49,438 nt of DNA, taken from a candidate division Zixibacteria bacterium SM23_73_3 (lineage in GTDB: Bacteria; Zixibacteria; MSB-5A5; SM1-73). Below, in pieces: positions 22,007 through 43,842 of this stretch. Position 1 is the stretch's first letter. Each line of letters opens with the position of its first letter. The DNA lies in contig LJUX01000018.1 in NCBI GenBank assembly GCA_001304155.1, positions 1-49,438 on the forward strand, given 5' to 3'. Made by a program: the position numbers and the translations under genes. The notes under the pieces were generated by a model. It was not told where the DNA came from. It saw only the letters and a program-made list of their open reading frames with translations, and searched no databases.

Positions 22007-23956
22007 TTAGATGCCTTCTGAACTCTCATTTACACCGGTTGAATGGCTGTAAATCAGAGATTCTAAATCGCCTTTTTCCCCTGACTTCACTGGAGTGAGG
22101 TGGGGCGTTAACTTTGAGGGAAGGTGGATTTTGAATGTAGTCCCTTTATCGGGTTCGCTTTCCACTTCTATCTTTCCATCGTGCAGGCTGACGATCTTTT
22201 TGACCAAACTTAATCCCAGTCCGGTTCCTTTTTCTCTGGAGGTGAAGAAGGGATTGAAGATTTTGTCCTGAACCTCCTTTGCTATCCCCCAGCCGGTGTC
22301 GGAAAATTCCACCAGCACCGATTTTTCACCAGAAGTAAACTGTTTTTCACCAATTAAGATGCGAATTTCTCCTCCATCCGGCATAGCCTCTATGGAATTT
22401 TGAATCAGGTTCTGGAAGCACTGCTTTAAAAGAATTGGATCGCCCAGCAGGGTTGGAAGATCAGATTCACAGTCCAGTTTGAACTTTATCCTATTCTCCT
22501 TCAAGGTCTCCTTTACTGATGTGTGACATTCCTCGAGTATTTCTTTTAGATTGATTTTCTTTATCTTTAACTGGAGAGGTTTAGCAAAGGCAAGAAATCT
22601 TTTAAGCAAAGATTCCATGATCATAGCTTCGTTGGTGATTCCGTCCACTGTCTGAGATTGTGAAGAAGGATCATCTTTTCCTTTTTTGAGTAACTTGCTA
22701 AAACCCAGGATAGTTCCCATAGAGTTTCTGAGCTCATGTGCCAGGCCAGATGACATCTCGCCCAAAGCGGCCATCTTGTCCTTGAAGGCGATTTCCTCCT
22801 CCAATTTCTTTATCTCCGTCAAGTCGGTCAAGAAAACCACCACCCCCAGCATCCTGCTCCGCTCATCCTTGACCACAGATGAACTTAAGCTCAAGGGGAT
22901 GCTTTTACCACCCTTTTTTGTTATCTTTATCTCTGGAATAGAATAGGGACTTTGTTCTGTGGAAGCGATCTGGATGGCAGAACAAAGTGGACTTTCTTCT
23001 CCGAAGACGGTTCGGTAGTGTTTACCTAAAACCATATTTTCTGATTTTTTCAGAATCATCTCTGCTGGGTGATTCATGCGGGTAATTTTTCCCTCTTCAT
23101 CTGTGATGATCATTCCATTGGTCATGCTTTTTAAAATATACTCGTTATAGCTGGCTAAGTTTTTCGCTTTGCGATCTGTTTTTTGATAGAGTTCCTGCAA
23201 GGTTCTCTCTTTCTGCTTAAGCTCAGCTATCACCTGTTCAAAGATTCCCACCGCCACATCCAATTCTCCTTCTTTTTTACTTTTCTCTGAGGCAGGGATT
23301 ATCATCTCCTTTTTTGCCTTTTTCACCATTAGTCGATAGGGTCGGAGCAGGTTTTTTATCAACAGCAGGGTGACGAATGCGGCGATGAAGAGTCCACCTA
23401 TTCGAGCCAAAACATTCAATCTGGAGACTTTTTCAATGCTGGCAAAAGCTGAAACCTCTTTTTCCACCATCACCCAGATACTGTTTTCAGCTTCTTTCCC
23501 TTCTAACGGCAGATAACAGGAAAGATAAGTATTACCTAAGACATCGGTGTAGAAATCAGAGAAGAATTTCCCCTGAGCTACCTTGTCTGGCTTTACCCCC
23601 CGAAAGATGTGAAGCTCCTCAGCCGAACGAACCTCTCTGGATGAAATTAAGGCTTCTCCATCTAAGGAGATATATGATATTCGATTGACGCCGGATTCGT
23701 AAGATAGCTCCATCAGATTCTTTTTAAGAGCCGAACCTATGGATCCACCGGATTGCGGGTTCCTCTCCCAGATAAGGCTGGCTGAATGTGCCACGGTGGA
23801 GAGGTATTGATGGGTCTGAAGTTTTAAAGCGTGCTTGGTTTGATGAAAAAGATACTCAGTCCCGAAATTGAATAGTATTAGAAAAAGTATGAAAAATATC
23901 AGTGAGATGCGAATCTGTGATTCGTATCCAAGATGTAAAAAATCTTTAATTTTCAA
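22007..23956 (-). CDS. PAS-domain sensor histidine kinase (NtrB/PilS-like)
   Basis: Two TMs, PAS, H-box LAHELRNS, NLIQNSIEAM, FNPFFTSREKGTGLGL. Confidence 0.93.
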   Translation of the reverse strand: MKIKDFLHLGYESQIRISLIFFILFLILFNFGTEYLFHQTKHALKLQTHQYLSTVAHSASLIWERNPQSGGSIGSALKKNLMELSYESGVNRISYISLDGEALISSREVRSAEELHIFRGVKPDKVAQGKFFSDFYTDVLGNTYLSCYLPLEGKEAENSIWVMVEKEVSAFASIEKVSRLNVLARIGGLFIAAFVTLLLIKNLLRPYRLMVKKAKKEMIIPASEKSKKEGELDVAVGIFEQVIAELKQKERTLQELYQKTDRKAKNLASYNEYILKSMTNGMIITDEEGKITRMNHPAEMILKKSENMVLGKHYRTVFGEESPLCSAIQIASTEQSPYSIPEIKITKKGGKSIPLSLSSSVVKDERSRMLGVVVFLTDLTEIKKLEEEIAFKDKMAALGEMSSGLAHELRNSMGTILGFSKLLKKGKDDPSSQSQTVDGITNEAMIMESLLKRFLAFAKPLQLKIKKINLKEILEECHTSVKETLKENRIKFKLDCESDLPTLLGDPILLKQCFQNLIQNSIEAMPDGGEIRILIGEKQFTSGEKSVLVEFSDTGWGIAKEVQDKIFNPFFTSREKGTGLGLSLVKKIVSLHDGKIEVESEPDKGTTFKIHLPSKLTPHLTPVKSGEKGDLESLIYSHSTGVNESSEGI

Positions 23957-24011
23957 TTTTCTCCCTGTATCACGGATGGAAAAAATCTTAGATTTTAAGT
24001 TTCTATTGGAT

Positions 24012-24038
24012 TTATCGGCATAAAAGAATGGGGGGTTA
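24012..24038 (-). promoter_or_regulatory. Sigma28 (FliA/WhiG)-like promoter upstream of the kinase
   Basis: Minus strand TAAC-N15-GCCGATAA. Confidence 0.55.
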
Positions 24039-24120
24039 ATTTTACGTTAACTGAACAAGAAATCCAACAGCTGGTATTTTGCAGATTAAACATGGGATAT
24101 AAAAAATTGGCTCGTTCTTT

Positions 24121-24290
24121 ACCTCACCCCCCCTAGTTCCCCATCTCCATCCTTCGACAACCTCACTTCGTGCCGCACTTCGTTCCCCGCCAGAGGCGGC
24201 GGGGTGTCGAAGGAAGCGCACTCAGTGCGAGGCAGGACGGTGAGCGAAGTCGAACCGCAAAGTGGAGAGGGGGGATAAAGGGAGAGAGGT
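24121..24290. repeat. Multiply nested palindromic element
   Basis: Outer cctcacccc...ggagagagg arms enclose ccttcgac...gaagtcgaacc, which encloses ccgccagaggcgg. Confidence 0.7.
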
Positions 24291-24392
24291 TTCTGGCAAA
24301 GACAGGGTTAATCAGGAAGTTCTTTTATGGCACAAACTATTGGACTATGAGATGAGAAAAATTGCTTTGGGATATAAAACAGAAGCCCGGAT

Positions 24393-25166
24393 TTAAAAGA
24401 AAGCTTTTAAATACGCAGAAATTATTGCATCCCCTGCAAACATGGCGATGACTGCTCCCAAAGCCAAGAAGGGTCCGAAGGGAATTGTCCGGTTTTCTCT
24501 CACCTCCTTTGAGAGGAATAAAGCAGTCCCACCTATCAGACTGCCCAAGAAAGCAGAAAGCAGAAGTACCAAAAGTATATTCTGCCACCCCAAGAATGCT
24601 CCCAGCATCATAGCCAACTTTATGTCTCCTCCCCCCATGCTCTCTTTTTTAAAAAGAAGCTCTCCTAAGATGGCAGCCAGATAAAATATTGCCCCACCCA
24701 CTAAAATTCCTGCAAGCGAATTTAAAACAGATGGCGATTCGACCACAAAAGACAAAAGGAAACCAAGGATGATGCCAGGGAAGGTGAGCACATCCGGAAT
24801 GATCCTGTGCTTTAAGTCGATAAAGAAGGTGGCCACCAGAAGAACGATCAAAATACCCCTCGCCAGAAAACTCCAGCTCAATCCAAAGCGCAGGTAAGCT
24901 AAGATGAGCAAGGCAGAGGTGATAAACTCCACCAGGGGATATTGCAGGGAGATTTTCGCTTCACAATTTCTGCAACGTCCCTTTAAGATGATGTAGCTAA
25001 AAAGGGGAATGTTGTCATAGGTGCGAATCTTTGATCCACATTTAGGACAGAACGAGCTGGGGAAGAGTATGGATTTTCTTTGGGGAATTCTGTAGATGCA
25101 AACGTTTAAAAAGCTTCCCAGGGCTAAACCCATCAGTATAATCAAGATCAGAGTTATAGTGTTCAT
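24393..25166 (-). CDS. pilD: Prepilin peptidase / N-methyltransferase
   Basis: GSFLNVCIYRIP, two CxxC, IDLKHRIIPD, MGGGDIKL, IPFGPFLA. Confidence 0.96.
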   Translation of the reverse strand: MNTITLILIILMGLALGSFLNVCIYRIPQRKSILFPSSFCPKCGSKIRTYDNIPLFSYIILKGRCRNCEAKISLQYPLVEFITSALLILAYLRFGLSWSFLARGILIVLLVATFFIDLKHRIIPDVLTFPGIILGFLLSFVVESPSVLNSLAGILVGGAIFYLAAILGELLFKKESMGGGDIKLAMMLGAFLGWQNILLVLLLSAFLGSLIGGTALFLSKEVRENRTIPFGPFLALGAVIAMFAGDAIISAYLKAFF

Positions 25167-25357
25167 CTTAATTATTTTATCTTCGTCTATCGGTTTCGAT
25201 GCTCGTATCGAATCTGGTTAGTTGAGGCTCGATGTTCGAAAAACTTCTTCACTTGTCCATAACTTTCGAGTCTCGAGCTTCCGCTGTCGAAACGCGCTTC
25301 CCTACCGCTAAACGAATCTCCTGGTTAGAGGAGAAAAAGATACGGTTGAACCGTAAG

Positions 25358-26098
25358 TTATATTTTTTTCATCTCGAAAAAATACTCATGGTAATCCCGG
25401 AGCGAATGCCGGAATATTTTTCTTAAAATCATCTCAAAATTCGCCACTACTTTGAAGAATATCTTCGGGATCAAACCGAAGTAAATCGGGTAGAGCAACA
25501 AAAAATGACCTTTTCTAATAGGATAATCGGCAACTTTTTTGAAATTATTCTGTTCAAAAAGGTGTAAATATGTTTTTAAGTCTCTTTGCCATCTCTTTTT
25601 GTTTTTGGTGACCTGTTCTATGCAAATAAATTTGCCTCCGGGTTTTAAGCTTTTCTGCACCTCGGAGAGCACTCTATTCAGCAGCGAATCGTCGGTGATA
25701 TACTGGAGCACAGTTACAGAGATGGCGGCATCTACCTTTTCGTCTTTTATGGGAAGATTCAATCCGTCGAACAGGGCGAGACCGATGTCTTTTTGTTCGC
25801 ATTCGTCTTTTGCCAAGTCAAGCATCTCTTTCGTGATTTCCACCCCTAACATAAATTCACATCTTCTGACTAAAAGGTCCGAAAATCTTCCACTTCCACA
25901 ACCAAAATCGAGAATGAATTTCCTTTTTTCCTTTCCCAGCGCTTTTTGGATTGCCCTCTTTTGAAGGATGTCTATATAAAGGTTTTTTCTTCCCTTCAGA
26001 TCGCGCGGATCAATAACCGCGGGCAGTTTCCCTTTCTCTGCAAGCTTTCCCCAGGTTTCACCACTGGTCTGAAAATGCTGTAGTTGCTCTGTTTCCAT
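25358..26098 (-). CDS. Class I SAM-dependent methyltransferase
   Basis: ILDFGCGSGRF, VLQYI, LKPGG. Confidence 0.9.
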   Translation of the reverse strand: METEQLQHFQTSGETWGKLAEKGKLPAVIDPRDLKGRKNLYIDILQKRAIQKALGKEKRKFILDFGCGSGRFSDLLVRRCEFMLGVEITKEMLDLAKDECEQKDIGLALFDGLNLPIKDEKVDAAISVTVLQYITDDSLLNRVLSEVQKSLKPGGKFICIEQVTKNKKRWQRDLKTYLHLFEQNNFKKVADYPIRKGHFLLLYPIYFGLIPKIFFKVVANFEMILRKIFRHSLRDYHEYFFEMKKI

Positions 26099-26101
26099 TT
26101 T

Positions 26102-27121
26102 TTACCTTTTCAAGAATCCGACAGGCTGTTTTATGGCTTCGTCTTTGCTTGTGGGGCGATGAAGGCTCCGCGATGCGGTGTCGTTTTCTCCATGAACGAC
26201 AGAATATAAGTCAACTTCGGCTTTTTTAATCTTCAAGGCGATCAGAAAACAAACCAATTCCCCCAAAGTCATGCACACCCGGATGGCCAAAGGGATCAAT
26301 ATGGCCGTGGAGATGGGGATGAACAAACTCAGAAGATAACTTTGCACTCCCTCTCTTACCCCCAGACCGGCCGGTGCAATGAAGGTTATCATTCCCAAGA
26401 AAACAGCAATAGAGAAAATCCCTGAGAACTTAATTACACCTATCGGATCCAAAATCATGAATGAATTTATTAAAAGATAAGCGCAGGTGGAAAATATCAT
26501 CCGATCTAAGATCAATAACCCGAGAAGGAATAGTACATGCTTATAACTAAACTTAAATTCTAATTTCTCTTTCCTGAGGGATCTTAGAAAAAAGTTAACC
26601 GTTTTGCCCAAAACCTTTGGATGCAAAACAAACAGGAGGAGAAGGGAAAGAAGAGAAATCAAAATGAGAACCAAGCCAGTTGGTACATTCTCCCACAGAA
26701 GGAGAGTGGAAATAAAGAATAGCATAGCTATCCCGTTGTAGGTGACCAACATTAACACCATGCTCACCAAAGTCAATCTTCTGGGTAGCCCCACTTTGTC
26801 GGCTAAATAAATCTGGCTCACATAGGTCCAGATCCTCCCAGGGATGTATTTCCCTGCCACAGAAAGGTAAGTAATCCTAAAACTTTGGGCAAAATTTATA
26901 CTGCGTCCTAACATTTTCAGAATCAAGGTCCAGACGTAAGCAGCAATTGAATAATTTAAAGCCAAAAGGAGAAAAGATGCAAAGAGAAGGGAGTATTTAA
27001 AGTGCCATTCATAACTGAGAAGAGCTTCTATATTTAAATAAAGTATTCTTCCCAATACAAAAAAGATTATTAACACTATCAACGTGCTTAGCGTCTTTTT
27101 AACTGGGCTGATTTTTGACAC
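26102..27121 (-). CDS. Lysylphosphatidylglycerol synthase TM-domain (flippase-like) membrane protein
   Basis: About 8 TMs; GKYIPG..W and PAGLGVRE motifs. Confidence 0.85.
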   Translation of the reverse strand: MSKISPVKKTLSTLIVLIIFFVLGRILYLNIEALLSYEWHFKYSLLFASFLLLALNYSIAAYVWTLILKMLGRSINFAQSFRITYLSVAGKYIPGRIWTYVSQIYLADKVGLPRRLTLVSMVLMLVTYNGIAMLFFISTLLLWENVPTGLVLILISLLSLLLLFVLHPKVLGKTVNFFLRSLRKEKLEFKFSYKHVLFLLGLLILDRMIFSTCAYLLINSFMILDPIGVIKFSGIFSIAVFLGMITFIAPAGLGVREGVQSYLLSLFIPISTAILIPLAIRVCMTLGELVCFLIALKIKKAEVDLYSVVHGENDTASRSLHRPTSKDEAIKQPVGFLKR

Positions 27122-27665
27122 AGCTTAACTCTTCTCTTAAGAAAAGAATTTTCCTTTTCACGCGGGCTGGCACTCCATAAGCTAAAGAATCGCAAAGGAT
27201 ATTTTTAGTAACTACGCTTCCGAGTCCTATTATTGTCCTATCCCCGATTTTGACCCCGGCTTGTATTATGCTACCAGCGCCTATCCAAACTGACCTGCCA
27301 ATTACAACATCCCCTACTTTGCGAGGATAAATCGCGCATATTTCGCTTTTGTGATCCTCTCCGGCATCACTGTGAGTCAAGATTAGTACCTGTGGGGATA
27401 GGGTGCTTTTCTGTTTTATGATTACTTTGCCAGTCAAGTCTATTGTTGTCCCCGGGCCGATATGGACATCATCCTCAATTGCCAAATTTCTGAAACCATT
27501 TGTTAAATTAATAATTCTGGCCTCATATATTCGCACATTTTTGCCTATCCTCGCTCCCAGGAATCTCAAAAGGGTTGACCGGAAGTAAGGACTGATACAC
27601 CACCTCAACAGTTTCTCAATGAGCATATATATGCCAATTTTGACATTTCTTAAAATACGATTCAT
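27099..27665 (-). CDS. Hexapeptide-repeat acyltransferase
   Basis: VVIGRSVWIGAGSIIQAGVKIG...GVPAR. Confidence 0.9.
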   Translation of the reverse strand: MNRILRNVKIGIYMLIEKLLRWCISPYFRSTLLRFLGARIGKNVRIYEARIINLTNGFRNLAIEDDVHIGPGTTIDLTGKVIIKQKSTLSPQVLILTHSDAGEDHKSEICAIYPRKVGDVVIGRSVWIGAGSIIQAGVKIGDRTIIGLGSVVTKNILCDSLAYGVPARVKRKILFLREELSCVKNQPS

Positions 27666-28647
27666 CTCCTGCCCCTAAACTGCCCCTAAAGAAATTAACT
27701 GTCGGTAGTAGTAACTGGTAAATGGCAGACCTACTTTTGCTTATATCTCGATGATAATTGAATACAATTTTCTTTTCTGCGCCCCATTTTTCTTTAAACT
27801 GAATCAGGCTAAGCATCTTCTTACTCGACCCCATAAAATCAAAATATGACTTCCCTCTCTCTTTAGCGAGCCGGATGGCATGATGAAACAATAGATCGTT
27901 AGGTCTTTGATGCAGGTGTTCGGTGACCGAGCCGCCATGAAAATAATGAGCGATCTTTTCAGAATAAATTACCACTATTCCAGCTACCGGTTGGTTGTGA
28001 TATTTGGCAAAAAATATATCCGAAAATTCAGGGACCAAAAGATCATATATTTTATAAAAAAGCTGGAGTGGATATTTAGTTAAAGCTCTATTCCTCCTCA
28101 TCGAATCCAGGTAGAGCTGATAAAACGACTCCACCTCCCCCCGTGATCTTATCTTCTCAAAATAAAGATCTGACTTCAGTGCAGTCTTTATATTTCTTTT
28201 CAAGCTATCTTTATAATTTCTCCAGATTAAATCTGTGGATTTGTCTTTCAACTCCAACAGATGACGATACGACTCCACACAGTTAAAATCGGGCAAATCT
28301 TGCTTTTTCTTAATGTCCACTTCAACAATCTGAATGCGTTGAATTTTCTCCTTTTTGGCCCAATGGTTCAAAAGGCCTAAGAATTCAGGGATGTGTTCTC
28401 GATCTCCAATAAACCCGCCATATGGAACCAGCGAATAGAACACTTTGAAGAATCGATTGCCCATCATCATTCCAGGCAAAGCGGAGAGCCAATATCCTTC
28501 CTCTTCGAGTACCAAGTATCGCATACCGCATCCATAACCTTCTTCCACCACCTTCCACCACAGAGAGGTATGGAAGATCAGGTCGGAGTGCAAAAAGACA
28601 AACTCATCCCACTTGTGGTTGGGCTCTTCTAAAACGATCAGATTCAT
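27616..28647 (-). CDS. FemAB-like GNAT acyltransferase
   Basis: WD.FV, PYGG, RNIK.A.K, PNDLL, YFDFMGS...L..FK.KWG. Confidence 0.85.
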   Translation of the reverse strand: MNLIVLEEPNHKWDEFVFLHSDLIFHTSLWWKVVEEGYGCGMRYLVLEEEGYWLSALPGMMMGNRFFKVFYSLVPYGGFIGDREHIPEFLGLLNHWAKKEKIQRIQIVEVDIKKKQDLPDFNCVESYRHLLELKDKSTDLIWRNYKDSLKRNIKTALKSDLYFEKIRSRGEVESFYQLYLDSMRRNRALTKYPLQLFYKIYDLLVPEFSDIFFAKYHNQPVAGIVVIYSEKIAHYFHGGSVTEHLHQRPNDLLFHHAIRLAKERGKSYFDFMGSSKKMLSLIQFKEKWGAEKKIVFNYHRDISKSRSAIYQLLLPTVNFFRGSLGAGDESYFKKCQNWHIYAH

Positions 28648-29792
28648 CTTAAAACTTGGGGGAGAATCTTTTTTATTTTATCACAGACAAAAATAACATC
28701 TTCTTTTTCAAGCAGCGGGTGTAAGGGGAGGGTTACCTGGTGTGCCCCTACATATTCGGTCAAGGGAAGCTTTGTCTGGTTTCCCCTCAGGTTCTTTCGG
28801 TAGTAGGAAAACTTATGAATGGGCGGATAATGTATGCTGGACTGGATCCTCTCTTTTTTCAAAAACTCCATAAACTTTTTTCTGTTTACCTTTTTATTCA
28901 GAAGGATAGGAAAAAGATGATAGGAGGATTTACGAGGATAATCTCTGAACGGAATGGAAAAGCCATCTATCCCTTTTAAATTTGACACATAAAGTTCCGT
29001 CAAGACTTTTCTTTTCTTATTCGCCCGGTGTAATTTCTTTAGCTGCAATATGCCCAGTGCGGCAGATATCTCGGTCATTCGATAATTATATCCCAGCTCC
29101 ACCACGTCGTATGTATAGGTGTGACCTTTGTGCCTGTTCAAGGTCATGCTGGTCATTCCATGGGACCGGAGAAGTTTGAGTTTTCTGGCAAGCCGGTCAT
29201 TATGGGTTAGGATCATTCCTCCCTCACCGGTAGCCAAATTCTTGTTGGAGAAAAAGGAAAAACAGCCGACCTCACCAAGCGTGCCTGCCATTTTTGAATT
29301 TAAGTCCGCTCCGATGGCATGAGCGGAATCCTCAATGACGAAAAGTTTATGCTTTCTGGCGATTCTTTTAATTTCCTGCATATCTGCCAGATACCCGCCG
29401 TAGTGAACCACCACAATCGCCTTGGTCTTGTTGGTGATCTTCTTTTCTAAATCTTCACAGGAGAGATTGAAATCATTCCATCCGCTTATGTCCACAAAAG
29501 TAGGCTTTGCTCCCACATACAGGATGGCGTTGGAGGAGGCAACAAAGCTCAATGATGGGACGATAACTTGGTCTGGGGGTTTGATGTTTAGAGCCCTCAT
29601 AGCCAGATGCAGAGCTGCAGTGCCGCTGGAGACAGTAATGGCATGCCTTGCCCCCATAAAATGGGCAAACTCTTCTTCCAACCTCTCCACGATTTCGCCC
29701 ATGGTGAGCCACCTGTTTTCTATTACCTCATCTACCATCTTTCGCTCACGCTGGTCGAAATTCAGATCAGATAGAGTTACCTTCCATTTCAT
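28644..29792 (-). CDS. DegT/DnrJ/EryC1/StrS sugar aminotransferase
   Basis: SSGTAALHLA, EDSAHA, FSFFSNKNLATGEGG, GYNYR. Confidence 0.95.
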   Translation of the reverse strand: MKWKVTLSDLNFDQRERKMVDEVIENRWLTMGEIVERLEEEFAHFMGARHAITVSSGTAALHLAMRALNIKPPDQVIVPSLSFVASSNAILYVGAKPTFVDISGWNDFNLSCEDLEKKITNKTKAIVVVHYGGYLADMQEIKRIARKHKLFVIEDSAHAIGADLNSKMAGTLGEVGCFSFFSNKNLATGEGGMILTHNDRLARKLKLLRSHGMTSMTLNRHKGHTYTYDVVELGYNYRMTEISAALGILQLKKLHRANKKRKVLTELYVSNLKGIDGFSIPFRDYPRKSSYHLFPILLNKKVNRKKFMEFLKKERIQSSIHYPPIHKFSYYRKNLRGNQTKLPLTEYVGAHQVTLPLHPLLEKEDVIFVCDKIKKILPQVLR

Positions 29793-29996: not shown

Positions 29997-30707
29997 TTAT
30001 TCCTCGTTCAGGAATTTCTTTCGGTGCTTTTCGAATTCCTCCACCGCCTTTTGATAATCGTCCGGCCTTCCAATGTCCAGCCAGAAATCATCGGAATTGT
30101 ATATCGCCACTTTTTTCTTCTTTTTCAAAAGAAGTTGCATCAAATCGGGGAAATCAAATTTTCCGCCTTTGGGGATGAAATTTAGTATCTCTGGCTCAAA
30201 TACGTATATTCCCATGCTCACTAAGTAGGATAGCTTGGGCTTTTCCATGTATTTGACCAGACTCTCATCTTCATCCTTTTGGATCACGCCAAAGTCGACA
30301 TCCACCCATCTTTTCTGTGCCGCCACGGTGGCAATGGCATTCTGGTTTTTGTGATACTCGATTAAGTTGAGATAATTCAATGTGGTGAGAAGATCCCCAT
30401 TCATCACCATAAATGTTTGATTCAGATTGTTCAGACAGGTCAAGGGACCGACTGTGCCCAGAGGTTTCTCCTCGAAGCTATATTCAATCTTCACCCCCCA
30501 TTTGCTTCCATCACCGAAAAAGGTCTGGATCAGATTACCCAGATGCCCAACCGCCAGAGTGATGTCGACAAGATGGCAATTCTTAAGTTGTCTTAATATT
30601 ACCTCCAGGATGGGAAAGTCTTCTATGGGCATAAGTGGTTTGGGCAAAATTACGGTATAAGGATAAAGTCGCCTCCCTTTACCACCGGCTAAGATTATTA
30701 CCTTCAT
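29997..30707 (-). CDS. Sugar-1-phosphate nucleotidyltransferase
   Basis: ILAGGKGRRL.P.T..LPKPL, PLGTVG, NGD, EKP, WLDIG. Confidence 0.93.
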   Translation of the reverse strand: MKVIILAGGKGRRLYPYTVILPKPLMPIEDFPILEVILRQLKNCHLVDITLAVGHLGNLIQTFFGDGSKWGVKIEYSFEEKPLGTVGPLTCLNNLNQTFMVMNGDLLTTLNYLNLIEYHKNQNAIATVAAQKRWVDVDFGVIQKDEDESLVKYMEKPKLSYLVSMGIYVFEPEILNFIPKGGKFDFPDLMQLLLKKKKKVAIYNSDDFWLDIGRPDDYQKAVEEFEKHRKKFLNEE

Positions 30708-36360: not shown

Positions 36361-36692
36361 ATTATTATGGTCGGAAACAGGGGTTAAACATTTAGGTTTG
36401 ACCTCACCTCTCCACCCACACGCCCTTTGTTCGTCACGGACGCCTTGTCCGTGAGGGAAAAGTAGATGGTAACGGATTCATCCTGATCCAGCCTTTGGCG
36501 GGAGAACGGACGAGGGCGTCTTTTACCAACGAAGAGGAAAATCTTGGGGAGATTTAATCCCCCTTTAAAAAAGGGGGAATTCTGAATAGTCCCCCTTTGC
36601 AAAAGGGGGATTCTCTGCCATAGGCAGATCCGCCTCAAGTTGGGACAGGGGTTGAACCCCTGCCCCAACAAACAAATTGTCCTGAGAAGAAC

Positions 36693-36724
36693 AAAAAAGG
36701 GGACTCAAATCCTTGAGTCCCCTT
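36693..36724 (-). terminator. Intrinsic terminator after the major pilin gene
   Basis: Minus strand AAGGGGACTCAA-GGAT-TTGAGTCCCCTTTTTT. Confidence 0.88.
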
Positions 36725-36748
36725 CTCTCACACAAAAAGGTGAAACCC

Positions 36749-37177
36749 TTAGTCTGTCGCATCATTGCTGGTACAGGTCAAAACGCCGTTGTGAGTCATG
36801 GTCCAGGTATCCACAGTACCATCGTCATCTAAGATGCCCGAAGTAGCGGTTGCGGTAAAGGTGTTCGCGGCTGCAACGATGCTGTAGCTGTAGCGAGCAG
36901 TGGACATGATGTCCACGCCGATGCGGGCAAATCCATCCTGGTCGGCGGCTGAGGCTGATTCACCATTGCCCCAATAGGCATCATACTCCTGACGATACGC
37001 TCGCTCCATAGCGTAAATCTGCTTTAAGATGTTTTTTGCCTCAGACTGCTTGGACTTGGTGGTTGCTCGCATAAATCGTGGGATAGCCAGAGCGGCCAAA
37101 ATTCCGATGATGACCACCACGATCATCAACTCGATCAAGGTGAAACCTTTTTGGCTTCGATGAAATTTGCTCAACAT
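36749..37177 (-). CDS. pilA: Type IVa pilin, probable major pilin
   Basis: QKG^FTLIELMIVVVIIGILAALAIPRF (G-1, F1, E5, P22); own sigma54 promoter and terminator. Confidence 0.92.
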   Translation of the reverse strand: MLSKFHRSQKGFTLIELMIVVVIIGILAALAIPRFMRATTKSKQSEAKNILKQIYAMERAYRQEYDAYWGNGESASAADQDGFARIGVDIMSTARYSYSIVAAANTFTATATSGILDDDGTVDTWTMTHNGVLTCTSNDATD

Positions 37178-37254: not shown

Positions 37255-37270
37255 TGCAAAAGTCGTGCCA
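37255..37270 (-). promoter_or_regulatory. Consensus sigma54 promoter of pilA
   Basis: Minus strand TGGCACGACTTTTGCA. Confidence 0.9.
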
Positions 37271-37420: not shown

Positions 37421-37861
37421 TTAGTCTTTAGAGTCATCAGTGACACAGGTGAAATTACCGGTTTGGTCTACGGTCCAGATATCCAAAGTGGGGTCGTCAT
37501 CCAGCCCGGTGGCGCTTCGGGACCCAGCGGTGGCTAAAAAGGTGAAGGCGTCTCCGGTCACCGAGTAGCTATAATAAACCGCCGGCATTATCTCCACATG
37601 CAAAGGAGCTATGACTCCCCCGGGTTGAGCAACAACAGTGCTTCCGTCACCGGGGTAATAGCTATTCTTCTCCTGCCGGTAAGCCCTTTGCATGGTATAG
37701 ATTTGTTTTAAGATTAGTTTTGCCTCGGTCTGCTTGGATTTCACCGAAGCACGCATAAAACGGGGAATCGCCATCGCCGCCAGGATAGCGATGATAACTA
37801 CTACGATCATTAACTCGATCAAAGTGAAGCCTTTACTTCTCCAACGCCTTTTTAATCTCAT
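37421..37861 (-). CDS. Second type IVa pilin, paralogue of pilA
   Basis: SKG^FTLIELMIVVVIIAILAAMAIPRF; start reassigned to ATG 37861 behind SD AAGGAG. Confidence 0.9.
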   Translation of the reverse strand: MRLKRRWRSKGFTLIELMIVVVIIAILAAMAIPRFMRASVKSKQTEAKLILKQIYTMQRAYRQEKNSYYPGDGSTVVAQPGGVIAPLHVEIMPAVYYSYSVTGDAFTFLATAGSRSATGLDDDPTLDIWTVDQTGNFTCVTDDSKD

Positions 37862-37895
37862 ATATAATCTCCTTACTTTCAACAACTAAAAGAAA

Positions 37896-38072: not shown

Positions 38073-39995
38073 TTATCCAGCAGGTTCTGCTTCAATGGGA
38101 GGGGCCTCCGGATGTGGAGTCCCTGATAATGCCTTAAGCGCCTCCAAATTTTTCATCTTCAGGAGAAGTTCTTCATTTTCAGGATCGATCTTTCTCACCT
38201 GGGCGAATCTGTCCAGAGCATGGGAAACCATCCCCTTCCACTGGTAGAAAAGCCCTAACCTATAAAAAGAAAGAGCAAATACCCTCTGGGCGTCCCAATC
38301 TCTATGAAATGTCTCATCCTCTGGATCGAAGGGACCATCAGCACTCCATCTTTTCTGAGATATCAAATCCATTTCCGAGAGTCGATCAATTCGAGCCTTA
38401 CTTACTTCAAAAACGTACCCCTGGGGAATGAGATGGTTCACCAAACCTGAGTCCTTTTCGGAAAATTCGATATAGGTAGGCTTGTCTAAATCTTGGCATC
38501 TTTTCAGAAGCGTTCCAAACAAAGGCTCACCGATCAAGTTATTCTGAATTCCTGAGAATAGGGCTTTTTGCTCTTCCCGTTTCTGCTCCACATACCAGTT
38601 GAAGCCCAAAAGACCACGGTCAATTACGGTCACATCTCGTCTTATCCTTTCTGCATAATGAAGCTCCCGCAAGATGAAATTCAAATTCACGTTGTCCACA
38701 AAAAGAACTGAGTTCGAATCTATATCAGAGATAACGCTTAAGCCATAATCATGAGCAATCCGATTATTAGATAGATTCGCTTCCGGATAGTGTTTAAACA
38801 TAGGGAGAAGGGAAATCGCTCCAAAAGCAATCAAAAAGAGATGCCGGATGAGGGACGATGAATGAGCAATATGGTTTAATACAAAGAAAACGCCTATGCC
38901 ATAAAAGAAAGATAAAGCGAAGAGGGAGAAGATTAAGTAGCCATGCAGGTCGGGGTTGGTGGATATAAATTCTGTGGTTATGAATATCACCACCGCACAG
39001 TTGCCCACAATCAACAAAAGCAGAAAGGCCAAAATCTTCCGGTTATATCGGAACAGGATAAAAAGACCCAGCAGGCTGATGGTGAAGCACAAGAAAGTAA
39101 GTTGATCAGAAAAAAGTGAAAAGATACGTGACGTCTGGGTGATGATACCGGATAAAAATTCAAGGTTCAGATTTCTGATGGTTTCGAGGGCAAAGATGGA
39201 GTTGGCAGAGGAGAAGATGGATTTGACCTCACCCCAGGCTAAAGGTGGATGGGAGAGAGAACGGATGGGCGGATAAAGGTAGACACTCAGTCCCAATAAC
39301 AAAAATAAAGCAAAAAGATGGATTTTCTTCAAATGGGAAAACGATCTTTTTGCAAAAGCTAAGAAAAAAATCACAAATGCAGGAGCGGTTGAAAGGAGGC
39401 TTAAATGATGATTCCCCAACCCCAATCCTAAAATAAAGAAAAAAAGATAGATATGTTTTAGCTTTTCCTTTTTAAGATACAGAATACTTGAGAACAGAAG
39501 CAGGGCAAAAAAAAGAACGTTCAACGAATAAACTTCCGCTCTCACCGCCTGAATCCAAAACGAATAAGTAAAGCCAAGAACCAGAAGGAAAGAGAAACTC
39601 GAAACCATAATTGATTCCATTTTCTTAGCCATCTCCGGAAAAAACAGATTTAGGCTTTTCCCAAAGCTTTTATAGAAAAGCACCAGTGAAAAAGAGGCAA
39701 AGAGGCTGGAGAGAAAATTCACCTTTAAGGCAAAACTCCAGAAAGGGAGAAAGGAGAAAAGTTTACCTAAAAGCACGTAAATGGGAAACCCGGGACGATG
39801 GGGTATTCCTAATACTGCGATGTTGGCAATCAACTCGCCAGAGTCCCACCAGAAAACAGTGGGACACAATGTTATGGTGTAGACTGCAAGGAAGAAAATG
39901 AATACAGAGGCACAAATGGCATTTTCAGACGTAAGCAATCTTCCTTCTTTTCCTCTCTGGTTGAGATATTTGGTCAAGCTTACAATCTTTTTCAT
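38073..39995 (-). CDS. DUF2723 / TMEM260-like GT-C membrane glycosyltransferase with C-terminal TPR-like tail (copy B)
   Basis: YTITLCPTVFWWDSGELIA...LGIPHRPGFPIY, AEVYSL, GLGNHH, PIRS...P.LAWG. Confidence 0.9.
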   Translation of the reverse strand: MKKIVSLTKYLNQRGKEGRLLTSENAICASVFIFFLAVYTITLCPTVFWWDSGELIANIAVLGIPHRPGFPIYVLLGKLFSFLPFWSFALKVNFLSSLFASFSLVLFYKSFGKSLNLFFPEMAKKMESIMVSSFSFLLVLGFTYSFWIQAVRAEVYSLNVLFFALLLFSSILYLKKEKLKHIYLFFFILGLGLGNHHLSLLSTAPAFVIFFLAFAKRSFSHLKKIHLFALFLLLGLSVYLYPPIRSLSHPPLAWGEVKSIFSSANSIFALETIRNLNLEFLSGIITQTSRIFSLFSDQLTFLCFTISLLGLFILFRYNRKILAFLLLLIVGNCAVVIFITTEFISTNPDLHGYLIFSLFALSFFYGIGVFFVLNHIAHSSSLIRHLFLIAFGAISLLPMFKHYPEANLSNNRIAHDYGLSVISDIDSNSVLFVDNVNLNFILRELHYAERIRRDVTVIDRGLLGFNWYVEQKREEQKALFSGIQNNLIGEPLFGTLLKRCQDLDKPTYIEFSEKDSGLVNHLIPQGYVFEVSKARIDRLSEMDLISQKRWSADGPFDPEDETFHRDWDAQRVFALSFYRLGLFYQWKGMVSHALDRFAQVRKIDPENEELLLKMKNLEALKALSGTPHPEAPPIEAEPAG

Positions 39996-40026
39996 CTGAG
40001 CAGTGGTATTAATGGTGCATAAAAAT

Positions 40027-40195
40027 TGTAGTTGCTCGATTTATCGAGCTTGACATAAGGCCCAATAAATTGGGCAACTACAAAGGCAAAAACACCTTTC
40101 CCTGAAGCTTGTCTTCATCCCCGCTTTAGTTGCTCGATTTATCGAGCTTCACCAAGTCCAATCTCAAGATCCTGCGGATAAATTGGGCAACTATA
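40027..40195. repeat. Two GTAGTTGC...GCAACTA REP-like doublets (40027-40082 empty; 40127-40195 with insertion)
   Basis: tagttgctcgatttatcgagctt...aaattgggcaacta in both. Confidence 0.88.
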
Positions 40196-40253
40196 AAAAA
40201 CCCCTTTTTCTTTTCAATTTCTTTTATCAGAGTTCACCAACAGGGGAGGTGGG

Positions 40254-41609
40254 TTATTTTAATTTATATTTCTCTATCTTTCTGTATAAGGTGGAGGCGT
40301 CTATCCCCAGAATTGAGGCGGCTTTGCTTTTCTGCCAGCCAGTTTGATTTAATACCCAGAAAATATAAGCTTTTTCTATACTTTCCAGCGTAGGAGCGCT
40401 TGGTTGAACCTCTGTGATTAAATCGATATCCTTACCCTCTTTTACCTTCTGGGGAAGATCCTCTGGGGTTATCTGGTTTCCCTTGGACAACAAAACCGCG
40501 TGTTCGATGGCGTTTTCCAACTCTCTCACATTGCCGGGCCATTGGTAGGAGAGCAATAGCTTCATTGCCTCATCGGTGATAATCTTTTCCTTCATCTGCA
40601 TCTTCTGGCAATATTTGCGGATAAAATAGGAGGAGAGAAGCTTGATATCGTCCCTTCTTTCACGCAGGGGAGGAATTCTTATAGGTATAACATGTAACCG
40701 ATAATAAAGATCTGCTCTGAAGTTTCCGAATTTTACCTCTTGTTCCAAATCGACGTTGGTGGCGGCGATTAAACGCACATCCACTTTAACGGGGGCAGTC
40801 CCTCCCACCGGGGTGATCTCCTTTTCCTCCAGAGCCCTTAACAGCTTTGCCTGAATGGCGGGCGAGGTCATTCCCAGCTCATCTAAAAAGAATGTGCCGC
40901 CATCCGCCACTTTAAACAGTCCCTCCTTGTCCTTTATGGCTCCGGTAAATGACCCTTTCACATGTCCGAACAACTCACTCTCCAGAAGGTTCTCTGGAAG
41001 GGCGGCACAGTTTATGGTGACAAAGGGTTTGTCCGATCTGGGGCTGTGGTAATGTATGGCTCTGGCGATCAACTCCTTGCCAGTGCCGGATTCACCCTCT
41101 ATCAAAACGGTTGAATCTGATCTTGAAATCCTTTCTGCCATCTTCTTTAGCTTGGTTATTTCCTGACTGTTACCGATGAAAGAATCGAAGTCGAATTTGG
41201 TTTGAAGTTCCCTCTTCAAGAAAACATTCTCCCGGGCCATCTTTTTTTGTTCTAAGGATTTCCTCACCGCGATCTTTATCTCGTCCACCTTGAAAGGCTT
41301 GGTTATGTAGTCAAAAGCACCCTTCTTTAAGGCCTCGATGGCAGAGTCCACGGAGGCAAATGCAGTCATCACGATGAAATCAATATCCGGATTAACCGAT
41401 TTGGCCTGAGAAAGAAGCTCAAGTCCGCTCATCTCCGGCATCATCAGATCGGCAATGACTAAGTCGTAGTTTTCACTTTTGACTTGTTCTAACGCTGTGG
41501 GTGCATCCCGGCTGGTGGAGACGTGATAGCCTTCCTTTTTTAGCATGATCTCCATAAACTTACACATGGACTCCTCATCGTCGACCACCAAAATCTTAGC
41601 CTTGTCCAT
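40254..41609 (-). CDS. Sigma54-dependent response regulator (NtrC/PilR-like)
   Basis: Receiver ILVVDDE/DLMMP; GESGTGKE; GSFTGA; WPGNVREL; Fis-type HTH. Confidence 0.95.
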   Translation of the reverse strand: MDKAKILVVDDEESMCKFMEIMLKKEGYHVSTSRDAPTALEQVKSENYDLVIADLMMPEMSGLELLSQAKSVNPDIDFIVMTAFASVDSAIEALKKGAFDYITKPFKVDEIKIAVRKSLEQKKMARENVFLKRELQTKFDFDSFIGNSQEITKLKKMAERISRSDSTVLIEGESGTGKELIARAIHYHSPRSDKPFVTINCAALPENLLESELFGHVKGSFTGAIKDKEGLFKVADGGTFFLDELGMTSPAIQAKLLRALEEKEITPVGGTAPVKVDVRLIAATNVDLEQEVKFGNFRADLYYRLHVIPIRIPPLRERRDDIKLLSSYFIRKYCQKMQMKEKIITDEAMKLLLSYQWPGNVRELENAIEHAVLLSKGNQITPEDLPQKVKEGKDIDLITEVQPSAPTLESIEKAYIFWVLNQTGWQKSKAASILGIDASTLYRKIEKYKLK

Positions 41610-41788
41610 ATTCCTCCTTGGATTCTTTCGGAAAGATTAATACCGTCAATATTTGCCTATGTGGGATCTCTGAAAAAGTCGAATATAAGAGCTTTGCTGG
41701 AGTATCAAGCTTTAGCTTGACCTGTCCCTCAGATCCTGCGGACACTCCAGTTTGCCCCTTTAAAGTTGTTTTAAGAGACCTCCATTTA

Positions 41789-41815
41789 ATATCGGCAGAG
41801 AGGAAGTTCTCTATA
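41789..41815 (-). promoter_or_regulatory. Sigma28-like promoter upstream of the response regulator
   Basis: Minus strand TATA-N15-GCCGATAT. Confidence 0.5.
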
Positions 41816-41909
41816 AAGGAAAACAGAATTTAGCTCAGTTTTTGCGCTGATATGAACCGTATGATCCACCTTAGCCAGAGGATTGGGTAAGTGCTGATTC
41901 AAACCAGCT

Positions 41910-43130
41910 TCAAGCTATTTTGGACAATCTTAATTTAGAGAGGCAGATTATTACCAGAAAGATCCCGAAGGTTATGAAGGAGAGATACAAAGAAAGATCG
42001 TTGACTCTTCGCCCTACGGTTTCGAAATTGATGGCATTCACCAGAAGAAAAGATAGGGTCAGTAGTATAAAGACGAAGCGATCTTTAAGTCCAGTCCTCA
42101 AAACGTAATAAAGGAGTAGCATGTAAGCTAAAATGGATGAGGAATAATTTTGAAACCAGCCCAGAGGTGAAAAAAGTGCCAAAAAGATCAGAAGAAGCGA
42201 GTATTCTATGCACTCCGGATGTTTAACGAAATTCCCTTCCACAAATTTCGACTTGTGGTTTAAGAAGAGGAGAAAGATAAATAAACCTACGGCTGTGGCA
42301 TATATCAACAGATTTACCGTGGAATGATTCAAATTAAAGAAGTTGACCTGATAGGTGGTGGGTGTGGCAAAACGATAAAAGAAGGCAAAAAGGGATTGAT
42401 TCAAATCCACAGCCAAAAGTGGAGGCGAGGATGCGCTCATGACAGTCTTCCATCCGGAAAGCAGATTCAGATTGCCCCAAAAACTATAAACCAATGAAGG
42501 GATAAAAAGAAAAACAATACACGTAATAGCCATATAGCCGATCAGTCTGAATTTTTTCTTGTATAAAAGATATGGCACGAAGATCAAAGAGGTGGGTTTA
42601 ATCATTAGCGATAAAGCGAGAAAAAGTCCCGCTTTCAGTTCTTTTCCCCCACCCGTGGAGAGAAAAAATAAAAAGATGAAGAGAAGCATCAAAAGATCTG
42701 TTTGCCCCAATCGAATCTCCCGCACCAAGAATTTCGAGGTGAAAAGTATGGTCAATATATATAGATAGGGAGGGGGTGGTTTATCCCCCATTATCATCTT
42801 TTTGCTCCACCTCATAATGAAAAACAGACAAATGCACATTCCAGCAAGCCATATTATCTGGGCTGAGGAGAGAGAAAAAAGCCCCAGTGGAGCAACCACA
42901 ATGGCAAAGACGGGAGAATACTTATACAGATAATGACCATCATCAAAATTATAAAGATTTTCCGTATTGAGAACCCGGGTGGCGGCTCGGTGAACCACCT
43001 CAAAATCATTCATCCCCTTTCGCAGGGTATTCCGGAAAAAGCCCAGAACGACAATTATGAGAATTACGTACAAAGCTATCCGAAAGTAGTCTTTTTTCTT
43101 AAGTTTAGACATTCGCATATAAAGATTCAC
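41910..43130 (-). CDS. GT87 / DUF2029 GT-C membrane glycosyltransferase
   Basis: DF.V...A, YLYKYSP, GQTDL, IKP, NQSL; multi-TM. Confidence 0.87.
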   Translation of the reverse strand: MNLYMRMSKLKKKDYFRIALYVILIIVVLGFFRNTLRKGMNDFEVVHRAATRVLNTENLYNFDDGHYLYKYSPVFAIVVAPLGLFSLSSAQIIWLAGMCICLFFIMRWSKKMIMGDKPPPPYLYILTILFTSKFLVREIRLGQTDLLMLLFIFLFFLSTGGGKELKAGLFLALSLMIKPTSLIFVPYLLYKKKFRLIGYMAITCIVFLFIPSLVYSFWGNLNLLSGWKTVMSASSPPLLAVDLNQSLFAFFYRFATPTTYQVNFFNLNHSTVNLLIYATAVGLFIFLLFLNHKSKFVEGNFVKHPECIEYSLLLIFLALFSPLGWFQNYSSSILAYMLLLYYVLRTGLKDRFVFILLTLSFLLVNAINFETVGRRVNDLSLYLSFITFGIFLVIICLSKLRLSKIA

Positions 43131-43167
43131 TCGGGTCCATCCCGGCTACGGTGGAGTGCATTGCTTC

Positions 43168-43354
43168 GGAGTGCGCCAGCTTGCTGGCGCGGTTTTTTTG
43201 AGCTCGAAGAGTTTCTGAGGACGCCGGGATTACATCCCGGCTGTCCTGTTCGGGATACTATCCCGAAGGTCTCATACATGGCAGGGCTGAATGCCCTGCC
43301 CTATTGGTTATAGGTTGCCTTATGCATAGAGGCGGGAATTCATCCCGCCTCTAA
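43168..43354. repeat. Cluster of short palindromes shared with 30772-30834
   Basis: gcgccagcttgctggcgcggtttt vs gcaccagcttgctggtgcggtttt; gcgggaattcatcccgc vs cgggatgaattcccgc. Confidence 0.7.
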
Positions 43355-43401
43355 ACACAGCCATTTCACGGATCACGTTCTTCTTCAAACATATGTTCAG
43401 G

Positions 43402-43842
43402 TCATCCGGATAATTCTTTTTTGTGCTTGAATGTCCAGCGGTCATTGATAAAGAAGTTCAACAGAGTGCCACACAGAATGCCAAAGACATTGGAGGCGAG
43501 ATAATATACGTGAAAAACCTCAGTCAGAATCCATAAGATGGACAGGTTGGTCAGCATGGCGGCGCTGGCAGAGACATGATATTGCAACATTCTCCTGAAG
43601 TATTCTCTTTTTCCCTCTTTGCCCCGATCATGCCAGGTCCAGAGATCATTCAGCACGAAGTTGCTTACCAGGGATATCTCAATTGCCCCAATGCTGGATA
43701 AAAGATAATAAACCCCCACCTTCTCGGTCAGAAACCACAAGAAAAACATATTGAGCACAAATCCCGAAGTCCCCACCAGACAGAATTTCACGAAGCGAGG
43801 CATCTGTTTTTCCTGAATAAGGGGGTGTATTTTGTGATTCAA
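43402..43842 (-). CDS. GtrA family protein (lipid-linked sugar flippase-like)
   Basis: RFVKFCLVG, NFVLND.WTW, NFFINDRWTF; 4 TMs. Confidence 0.92.
   Translation of the reverse strand: MNHKIHPLIQEKQMPRFVKFCLVGTSGFVLNMFFLWFLTEKVGVYYLLSSIGAIEISLVSNFVLNDLWTWHDRGKEGKREYFRRMLQYHVSASAAMLTNLSILWILTEVFHVYYLASNVFGILCGTLLNFFINDRWTFKHKKELSG

Follow-up and report, generated by a model that had tools for sequence, protein, structure and literature searches.

O-glycosylation of type IV pilins by lipid-phosphate-sugar-dependent glycosyltransferases of the GT-C fold is a kind of system already known. The pilin arabinosyltransferase TfpW of Pseudomonas aeruginosa group IV, a GT-C protein of 646 amino acids (aa), is predicted to have 11 transmembrane helices and bears a DDX motif in its first periplasmic loop as well as a periplasmic tetratricopeptide repeat (TPR) domain at its C-terminus. 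It works with genes for lipid-phosphate-sugar synthesis, interacts with a GtrA-like protein and is encoded just downstream of pilA (10.1101/2020.04.19.049825). Listeria GtlB, which is treated alongside PMT-family enzymes, "shows some similarity" to TfpW (PMC5836110). Human TMEM260 (CAZy GT117; PDB 9rql, 9rqm and 9rqn) takes mannose from dolichol-P-mannose and modifies the IPT domains of plexins, cMET and RON at a long Pro/Gly sequon (10.64898/2026.03.17.711096). Here, we analyzed a stretch of 49,438 nucleotides (nt) from a Zixibacteria genome (contig LJUX01000018.1; the whole stretch is called the window below), in which two genes for TMEM260-like GT-C proteins, designated DUF_A and DUF_B, flank two type IV pilin genes. 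This locus is best explained as the major type IV pilin locus of the genome, which would also encode a protein O-glycosylation system of three components acting in the periplasm. We propose, at a probability of roughly 60%, a TfpW- or Gtr-like three-component system in which the TMEM260-like GT-C enzymes would O-glycosylate the type IV pilin with an N-acylated 4-amino-4,6-dideoxy-N-acetylhexosamine (HexNAc) carried on polyprenol phosphate. What would be new is the participation of the TMEM260 family.

The window corresponds to contig C36 of a 1.88-Mb Zixibacteria metagenome-assembled genome (MAG) that is 82% complete, and the homologs and related contigs carry Zixibacteria labels. The gene inventory was obtained by Pfam scans of the open reading frames (ORFs) of the window. 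All genes of the locus are located on the minus strand, between purF (43937-45343) and a ThiD2/GcvT pair on the opposite strand, and are transcribed in the order GtrA, GT87, sigma-54 response regulator (PilR-like), DUF_B, pilin 1, pilin 2, DUF_A, GT2, GT4, 4,6-dehydratase, nucleotidyltransferase, DegT aminotransferase, FemAB/GNAT-like transferase, hexapeptide acyltransferase, LPG_synthase_TM protein, methyltransferase, PilD and PAS kinase. Every gene named in the original prediction, which had been made from the letters of the window, was recovered by Pfam on this strand. That prediction had also described a PilR/PilS-like pair as bracketing the core of the locus; the response regulator is not a bracket of the locus, because GtrA and GT87 are located upstream of it and thus outside the regulator pair.

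By its described architecture, and not by its sequence, TfpW may be taken as the closest working analogue. The combination of a GT-C part with TPRs, which are probable in DUF_A, an acidic motif in the first periplasmic loop, a position beside the pilin gene and a GtrA-like partner are points of likeness, with both DUF_A and DUF_B encoded beside the pilin genes. The locus differs from that of TfpW in having genes for an amino-dideoxy-HexNAc (LegB-like, DegT and nucleotidyltransferase), in the absence of any DprE1/DprE2-like (D-arabinofuranose pathway) match among the scanned locus ORFs, and in the presence of two paralogous enzymes on either side of the pilins together with a GT87 protein. An NCBIfam scan of DUF_A and DUF_B gave no TfpW-named row. 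The proposed outcome, an O-glycosylated type IV pilin, would be shared with the PglL/TfpO systems, and a bacillosamine-like pathway accompanies the Neisseria system. In contrast to those systems, no Wzy_C match was found among the scanned ORFs of the window, in agreement with the original prediction that PglL/TfpO is absent there, and the GT2 of the locus would imply single sugars on polyprenol monophosphate and not en-bloc transfer. The GtrABC and ArnC-ArnT systems likewise combine a GtrA-family protein, a GtrB/ArnC-like GT2 with C-terminal transmembrane helices and a GT-C enzyme (three GT-C genes are present here), and the Arn pathway also makes its amino sugar by means of a DegT-family aminotransferase. 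Their known acceptors are O-antigen and lipid A (PMC11194591), whereas here the neighbors are pilins and two of the GT-C proteins belong to PF11028.

The relationship of DUF_A and DUF_B to TMEM260 was further examined by profile and sequence searches. Both proteins scored far above the gathering cut-off of 24.2 bits on PF11028 (118.0 bits for DUF_A and 110.0 bits for DUF_B), which takes the place of PF10852, the model named in the original prediction. The kinship with TMEM260 claimed there was borne out: both proteins are homologous to the solved human enzyme and retain donor-site residues. A profile built from DUF_A relatives matched chain 9rql_A with an E-value of 2.6e-59 (profile positions 15-499 on chain residues 28-516), and the single sequence of DUF_B matched solved TMEM260 with an E-value of 4e-25 (residues 30-472 on 31-477). 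The homology extends past the N-terminal Pfam domain and covers the transmembrane GT-C part and the Rossmann-like domain; DUF_A relatives also bear PF28495 (TMEM260_2). In TMEM260, eleven transmembrane helices (24-415) are followed by a luminal Rossmann-like domain (416-564) and a TPR domain (565-706), and D52, H67, R264, Y267 and D441 are essential, with D441 as the catalytic base (10.64898/2026.03.17.711096). The HMMER alignment placed D39, H54, R265 and D447 of DUF_A on D52, H67, R264 and D441 of TMEM260. In an alignment of 30 sequences of DUF_A relatives (A1), D39 was invariant (30/30), and H54 and D447 were each kept in at least 90% of the sequences. DUF_B carries WWDSGE and PHRPGFP at the sites of TMEM260 D52 and H67, and in its clade (clade B) W49-W50-D51-S52, H66 and D434 were each found in at least 19 of 20 sequences.

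A crude hydropathy scan placed the last hydrophobic segment at around residue 400 in both DUF_A and DUF_B, with about 240 soluble residues behind it. DUF_A matched TPR_1, TPR_2 and TPR_8 with E-values of 4.8e-6 to 4.2e-5, each slightly under the family cut-off, and positions 565-641 of the A1 profile strongly matched TPR proteins. DUF_A shares with TMEM260 the Pfam family and the transmembrane GT-C and Rossmann-like homology and probably also the order of its parts, from the transmembrane GT-C part through a soluble domain to the TPRs. For DUF_B, the equivalent of D441 and the TPR domain are uncertain. A further difference from TMEM260 lies in the substrates: a polyprenol-phosphate-linked amino sugar would probably serve as the donor here, with a type IV pilin as the acceptor.

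The arrangement of PF11028 genes beside pilin genes is real, non-random and conserved. To compare the relatives, a table of pilin orthologs was matched with a table of PF11028 genes, and 20 + 8 regions were examined by tblastn with the window proteins. Adjacency in relatives, which had been named beforehand as the point on which the prediction could fail, was kept at the genus, family, order and class levels and recurs in a second, unrelated lineage. At least 26 of 40 relatives have a PF11028 gene and a pilin ortholog lying no more than about 2.5 kb apart. The 14 others comprise G016, G018, G019, G021, G026, G027, G032 and G033 (fragmented, or no ortholog found on a shared contig), G022, G024 and G028 (family f4), and G034, G038 and G039. 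In family f1, the gene order is PurF, GtrA, GT87, PilR, DUF_B, two to six pilins, DUF_A, GT2, GT4 and sugar genes, with pilin 1 orthologs in the same position as in the window. The order in family f2 is PilR, DUF_B, two pilins, dehydratase, nucleotidyltransferase, aminotransferase, PilD and kinase. More distant arrangements are PilR, DUF_B-like, pilins, DUF_A-like, GT2 and GT4, then LPG_synthase_TM and PilD, in G037; PilR, four pilins, DUF_A-like, GT2 and GT4 in G036; and DUF_B-like, two pilins and PilD in G035 and G040. In most relatives, PilR immediately precedes the pilin block. GT2 followed by GT4 is located downstream of DUF_A in f1, G036 and G037, GtrA upstream of GT87 and PilR in f1 and in G022, and the PAS kinase behind PilD in f2 and G040.

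Three PF11028 genes were found in the whole MAG, two of which abut pilins. Since a simple motif scan detected six pilin-like ORFs in the genome and the regions within 2.5 kb of these make up only 1.1% of its bases, this adjacency is beyond chance. A wider contig scan covered 74 PF11028 loci, in which pilin-signal ORFs within 2.6 kb on the same strand were counted; 44 had such an ORF nearby. Among loci labeled Zixibacteria or Ignavibacteria, a nearby pilin motif was present in 37 of 51, and 11 of the 14 negatives had less than 1.2 kb of contig on one side. The proportion was 7 of 9 for loci without a phylum label. A quick maximum-likelihood tree of 64 PF11028 proteins from the scanned loci resolved two deep clades (SH-aLRT 99 each), clade B with pilins downstream in 20 of 24 cases and clade A with pilins upstream in 32 of 40.

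A similar module was detected around a pilin of another family. Four MAG loci (L074, L077, L078 and L082) have in common the ORF order of a GT2-sized protein, a large protein, the other-family pilin and two large proteins, and Pfam identification was made for L078. There, positions 4905-12344 encode a GT2 (352 aa), a PF11028 protein (624 aa), the pilin (160 aa), another PF11028 protein (572 aa) and a PMT_2 GT-C protein (632 aa). The GT2 is 29% identical to that of the window over its full length (E = 5e-32). The nearest Atlas clusters of the pilin are mostly from Acidobacteriota, which is a lead and not an assignment. Judging from L078, the combination of a GtrB-like GT2 and a pilin flanked by two PF11028 genes has therefore come together on at least two occasions.

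Some variation was also noted among the PF11028 loci. In L013 (G017:C14), six tandem pilin genes lie between two PF11028 genes (8535-12193), compared with two to four elsewhere. Tandem arrays of two to three PF11028 genes, about 1.9 kb apart and with no pilin ortholog listed beside them, occur at G025:C1:1606-5919, G029:C1:406980-409375, G027:C74:17477-19878, G017:C38:56725-59066 and G019:C239:1707-4054. In many records labeled Ignavibacteria (several of L025-L062), the PF11028 proteins nest inside Zixibacteria-labeled clades, and the labels probably disagree with the phylogeny.

The nature of the donor sugar was examined by NCBIfam scans of the sugar genes. The aminotransferase gave rows for PseC (364.7 bits), ArnB (292.9 bits) and LegC (274.9 bits), the top rows of the nucleotidyltransferase were of the guanylyltransferase type, and the hexapeptide protein gave rows for WcaF and for NeuD/PglB/VioB family acetyltransferases. 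No LegG-, LegI- or LegF-type match was found among the scanned ORFs. Without steps of these types, the pathway would stop at an NDP-4-amino-4,6-dideoxy-HexNAc (NDP, nucleoside diphosphate) that is N-acylated, so that the product of the locus should be a bacillosamine-like sugar of this kind. The original prediction had spoken of a monosaccharide donor; on the NCBIfam rows of the sugar genes, a bacillosamine-like N-acylated 4-amino-4,6-dideoxy-HexNAc is likelier than mannose. The trio of dehydratase, nucleotidyltransferase and aminotransferase is located directly behind the pilins in f1, f2 and f4, which connects the sugar with the pilins, also in loci that lack an adjacent transferase.

For the GT2, the top NCBIfam rows were ArnC, AglJ and PgfS, all with scores under the cut-offs. 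The protein aligned to positions 8-301 of the 316 positions of the ArnC model at a sub-cut-off score, and two hydrophobic helices were found at its C-terminus. These features agree with the polyprenol-phosphate type of enzyme proposed for it at the outset, and the GT2 is predicted to be of the GtrB/ArnC kind, whose members charge polyprenol phosphate with single sugars. No phosphoglycosyl-transferase family match was obtained among the scanned locus ORFs.

Both pilins of the window carry a class III signal, KG/FTLIELM (Gly-1, Phe+1 and Glu+5). Pilin 1 was confirmed as a pilin by its N_methyl match, but not in its annotated start: the ATG at 37861, with AAGGAG 8 nt upstream, is more likely, and the mature protein has about 135 aa. 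The best NCBIfam row of pilin 2 was a Myxococcus-type PilA, under the cut-off, and orthologs with 54-92% identity were found in most relatives. Pilin 2 is probably the major pilin. The motif TGGCAC-N5-TTGC, which we take to be the sigma-54 promoter consensus, occurs without mismatch only once in the window, 79 nt upstream of the ATG of pilin 2 (37177). Having its own sigma-54-like site and terminator, pilin 2 fits a strongly expressed major pilin with accessory genes behind the terminator. A class III signal peptide, PilD in the locus, and a PilR-like regulator together with a sigma-54-like site, as expected of a type IVa major pilin, are all present, and four PilB/PilT-type ATPase matches were found elsewhere in the genome. 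The sigma-54 site was dropped as conserved evidence, as a strict match was present in only 5 of 25 relatives' loci.

The spacing of the genes around the pilins was also examined. DUF_B ends 188-212 nt upstream of pilin 1, and 389 nt separate the stop codon of pilin 2 from the start of DUF_A, with the terminator-like hairpin in between. In Pseudomonas, pilin accessory genes are expressed by read-through of a terminator after the major pilin gene (PMC11841053), and the terminator between pilin 2 and DUF_A resembles that arrangement. A 95-aa ORF (36384-36671) in the spacer behind the terminator gave no family match in Pfam or NCBIfam.

Each window pilin has one Cys, and the pilins therefore lack a C-terminal disulfide loop. 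In an alignment of 24 pilins (A2), most of which have a single Cys, a block L-D-D-D-x-x-x-D-x-W was invariant (24/24), corresponding to D117, D118, D119, D123 and W125 of the pilin 2 precursor. This block presumably resembles the calcium sites of pseudopilins and not a disulfide-bonded D-region. If the pilin is glycosylated, the variable Ala/Ser/Thr/Gly/Pro-rich alpha-beta loop (about residues 57-72 of mature pilin 2) might be the acceptor region, and the conserved S/T residues 86 and 88 or the C-terminal C-T-S-(D/N)-D tail are further conceivable candidates. The TMEM260 sequon, P-x5-P-x3-G-P-x2-G/A-G-G-x-x-T/S, is absent from these pilins and was consequently rejected as a predictor of sites.

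The gene content, the homology to TMEM260, the conservation of aligned catalytic residues and the conserved neighborhood are observations, whereas every chemical step of the proposed system, as well as the acceptor and the identity of the sugar, is inferred. The nucleotidyltransferase, the LegB-like 4,6-dehydratase and the DegT aminotransferase would make the NDP-4-amino-4,6-dideoxy-HexNAc, the hexapeptide and/or FemAB-like transferases would N-acylate the amino sugar, and the methyltransferase may modify it further. The GtrB/ArnC-like GT2 would then move the sugar onto polyprenol phosphate, and either GtrA or the LPG_synthase_TM protein would flip the lipid-linked sugar to the periplasmic side. 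DUF_A and DUF_B are predicted to be inner-membrane GT-C enzymes with a periplasmic "hand" formed by the Rossmann-like domain and TPRs, and would glycosylate the membrane-anchored pilins ahead of pilus assembly; that the sugar would go to Ser/Thr residues of the pilins is suggested by gene context. The two paralogs probably differ in the sites or in the pilins on which they act, and GT87 and GT4 may extend the glycan.

Several observations weigh against this proposal. All NCBIfam rows of the sugar pathway remained under the curated cut-offs. In DUF_B, it is V436 and not an Asp that is pairwise-aligned to TMEM260 D441, with the conserved D434 two residues upstream, and no TPR reached the threshold (best, TPR_2 with E = 0.098). 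PF11028 genes are multi-copy, with one to eight per genome in all 41 genomes of the sampled class, and most copies are located away from pilins. The third copy in this MAG (C13:15606-17438, corresponding to L099:9607-11439; 610 aa, 141.5 bits) has a clostripain-like peptidase, a DUF763 protein, an HD-domain protein, a thioredoxin-like protein and an M32 carboxypeptidase as neighbors, and no pilin or glycan gene was found beside it. The family is thus not dedicated to pilins. None of the 14 scanned loci from Peregrinibacteria, Chloroflexota, Myxococcota, Fermentibacteria and "proteobacterium" records had a pilin nearby. These distributions would suit PF11028 enzymes that glycosylate a non-pilin target, such as lipopolysaccharide (LPS), exopolysaccharide or other envelope proteins, and whose only link with the pili is a shared regulation through PilR and sigma-54, all the more as the classical Gtr and Arn systems, built of the same three parts, modify O-antigen or lipid A (PMC11194591). 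We regard such a target as quite unlikely, since each of the two paralog clades has kept a fixed side of the pilins over class-level divergence, DUF_B is inserted between pilR and the pilins, and the second lineage has rebuilt the arrangement around a different pilin family. Moreover, the solved homolog TMEM260 O-glycosylates proteins specifically and holds the peptide with its TPR and Rossmann-like domains (10.64898/2026.03.17.711096).

The pilin loci without an adjacent PF11028 gene bear on which protein would act on the pilin. G034, G038 and G039 have pilins with no adjacent GT-C, and the members of f4 (G022, G024 and G028) have the same pilins and sugar genes and a single PF11028 gene that is located elsewhere. 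G022 keeps PurF, GtrA, GT87, PilR, three pilins and the dehydratase, nucleotidyltransferase and aminotransferase together with no PF11028 gene among them. PF11028 is therefore not the sole candidate transferase, and in this respect the original prediction has to be modified, while adjacency, TMEM260 homology and the GtrB/ArnC-like GT2 speak for it. The arrangement in G022, like the position of GtrA and GT87 upstream of PilR throughout f1, would be expected if GT87 and GtrA put the first sugar on the pilin and the PF11028 enzymes only extended or decorated the glycan or served other periplasmic proteins. This seems unlikely in view of f2, G035 and G040, in which a PF11028 gene is present and no GT87 or GtrA was detected at the pilin locus, of G024, in which neither GT87 nor GtrA is located there, and of the second lineage, in which the pilin is paired with PF11028 and PMT_2 and not with GT87. 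Characterized GT87 enzymes act on glycolipid or glycan acceptors. TMEM260, in contrast, acts on protein (10.64898/2026.03.17.711096). The compact f2 loci have their own difficulty, in that they contain DUF_B with no GT2, GtrA or flippase candidate nearby; the donor route is thus not always co-located. In G024, the sugar-gene trio stays with the pilins even without an adjacent glycosyltransferase, as it might if the sugar genes fed an en-bloc route, in which a bacillosamine-like glycan linked to undecaprenyl diphosphate is transferred to the pilin by an unlinked oligosaccharyltransferase and the PF11028 proteins act, for example, as pilin chaperones or assembly accessories. In Neisseria, the PglL-type pilin glycans have bacillosamine-type sugars at the reducing end, and with the genome 82% complete an oligosaccharyltransferase could be missing from it; absence of Wzy_C near the pilins is likewise not proof of genomic absence of PglL/TfpO. 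Against this route, which we consider very unlikely, stand the lack of a phosphoglycosyl-transferase family match among the scanned locus ORFs, the polyprenol-monophosphate kind of the GT2, and the context of the sole Wzy_C match in the genome, which is located on another contig (C21) amid GT9 heptosyltransferase, GT4 and GT2 genes. That gene looks like an LPS-core ligase in an LPS-core-like cluster, and a PglL/TfpO route is for this reason not supported. In addition, aligned catalytic residues are conserved in both PF11028 proteins, suggesting that they are enzymes rather than chaperones.

In a literature search with subscription journals and supplements outside its reach, no publication linking TMEM260 or DUF2723 with pili was found, in line with the earlier statement that the family had not been described as a pilin transferase. 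Within the same scope, no description of a bacterial function was found among the matches listed for PF11028, IPR021280, TMEM260-like or GT117, which dealt with human TMEM260 or were unrelated, and the literature on "pilin glycosylation" with "GT-C" concerned TfpW or PglL only. The paper on TMEM260 in the Proceedings of the National Academy of Sciences mentions bacteria only as "distant homologs in bacteria". If the proposed system is correct, it would provide a third enzyme family for pilin glycosylation, beside the Wzy_C enzymes and TfpW; if TfpW itself proves to be a PF11028 member, the family would be the same and the result would shrink to a new member with a new sugar. The conserved pilin neighborhood offers a concrete client and a likely donor for PF11028 enzymes. 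The family is very large in bacteria, with 9,407 representatives (at 50% identity) that match the profile of DUF_A at E <= 1e-30, so that finding its first client in bacteria would be of importance. It would also provide a bacterial model that is easy to work with, and place the human disease enzyme TMEM260 in an evolutionary setting. Pilin glycosylation matters for the evasion of phages and predators and for pilus surface chemistry (PMC11841053). As a tentative extension, which we think rather doubtful, bacterial TMEM260-like (GT117) enzymes might form a widespread, unrecognized class of protein O-glycosyltransferases with the type IV pilin as one ancient client. The Zixibacteria paralogs would differ in the site or the pilin at which each installs a polyprenol-phosphate-borne bacillosamine-like sugar, the module would have arisen independently in a second phylum, and human TMEM260 would descend from bacterial surface-filament glycosylation.

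The coordinates of the features of the locus and the family matches on which their assignments are based are given in Table 1.

Table 1. Features of the pilin locus in window coordinates, with supporting matches.
Feature	Coordinates	Strand	Evidence
GtrA-family small membrane protein, candidate flippase/hub for polyprenol-phosphate-sugar	43402..43842	-	PF04138, 100.9 bits
GT87-family GT-C protein (polyprenol-phosphate-sugar-dependent family)	41910..43130	-	PF09594, 77.6 bits; ~10 hydrophobic segments
PilR-like sigma-54-dependent response regulator	40254..41609	-	Response_reg, Sigma54_activat, HTH_8
DUF_B, TMEM260-like GT-C protein, clade B, 640 aa, upstream of pilins	38073..39995	-	PF11028, 110 bits
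Pilin 1, type IV	37421..37885	-	N_methyl, 36.8 bits
Sigma-54 promoter-like site upstream of pilin 2	37256..37270	-	TGGCAC-N5-TTGC, 0 mismatches
Pilin 2, type IV, 142-aa precursor	36749..37177	-	N_methyl, 41.8 bits
Intrinsic terminator-like hairpin behind pilin 2	36693..36728	-	16-pair stem, then T run
DUF_A, TMEM260-like GT-C protein, clade A, 655 aa, downstream of pilins	34393..36360	-	PF11028, 118 bits
GtrB/ArnC-like GT2, candidate polyprenol-phosphate sugar synthase	33353..34384	-	PF00535, 108.9 bits
GT4 glycosyltransferase	32038..33237	-	PF00534, 105.3 bits
LegB-like NDP-HexNAc 4,6-dehydratase	30956..31945	-	TIGR04180 (LegB), 444.5 bits; cut-off 475
Sugar-1-phosphate nucleotidyltransferase	29997..30707	-	PF00483, 140.7 bits
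DegT-family 4-aminotransferase	28644..29792	-	PF01041, 406 bits
FemAB/GNAT-like acyl- or aminoacyl-transferase	27616..28647	-	PF13480 and PF02388; TIGR03019, 88.8 bits, under cut-off
Hexapeptide-repeat sugar acetyltransferase	27099..27665	-	PF00132
LPG_synthase_TM polytopic membrane protein, second flippase candidate	26102..27121	-	PF03706, 55.4 bits; ~9-10 hydrophobic segments
S-adenosylmethionine-dependent methyltransferase	25358..26098	-	PF08241, 67.6 bits
Prepilin peptidase PilD	24393..25166	-	PF06750, 121.2 bits; PF01478, 84.9 bits
PAS sensor histidine kinase, PilS-like by position	22007..23956	-	PAS, HisKA, HATPase_c

Outside the window, a paralog of pilin 2 with 67% identity was noted at C44:16486-16911 (L100:6487-6912). 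Codon 79 of its gene is a TGA, the only one in frame; it lies in the alpha-beta loop, within the motif C-N-G-K-T-M-C-S-A-[TGA]. The TGA occupied the same position in all 11 orthologous loci fetched (families f1 and f4; orthologs in L109-L118), and the coding frame downstream of it was conserved. RNAalifold predicted no consensus hairpin of the selenocysteine insertion sequence (SECIS) type in the 70 nt after the TGA, and SelB was not found in this MAG. No description of a selenocysteine type IV pilin was found among the matches listed in a literature search by title and abstract. A tRNA-Sec is present in the genome, and SelB scored above the cut-off in four of five near-complete relatives. The paralog may be a selenocysteine-containing type IV pilin.

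Elsewhere in the window, a 1442-aa ORF (11130-15458) gave only Ig-like/BACON-type matches. The G+C content reached 0.54 at positions 12001-14000, inside the stretch of this ORF, versus 0.41-0.50 across the remaining window.

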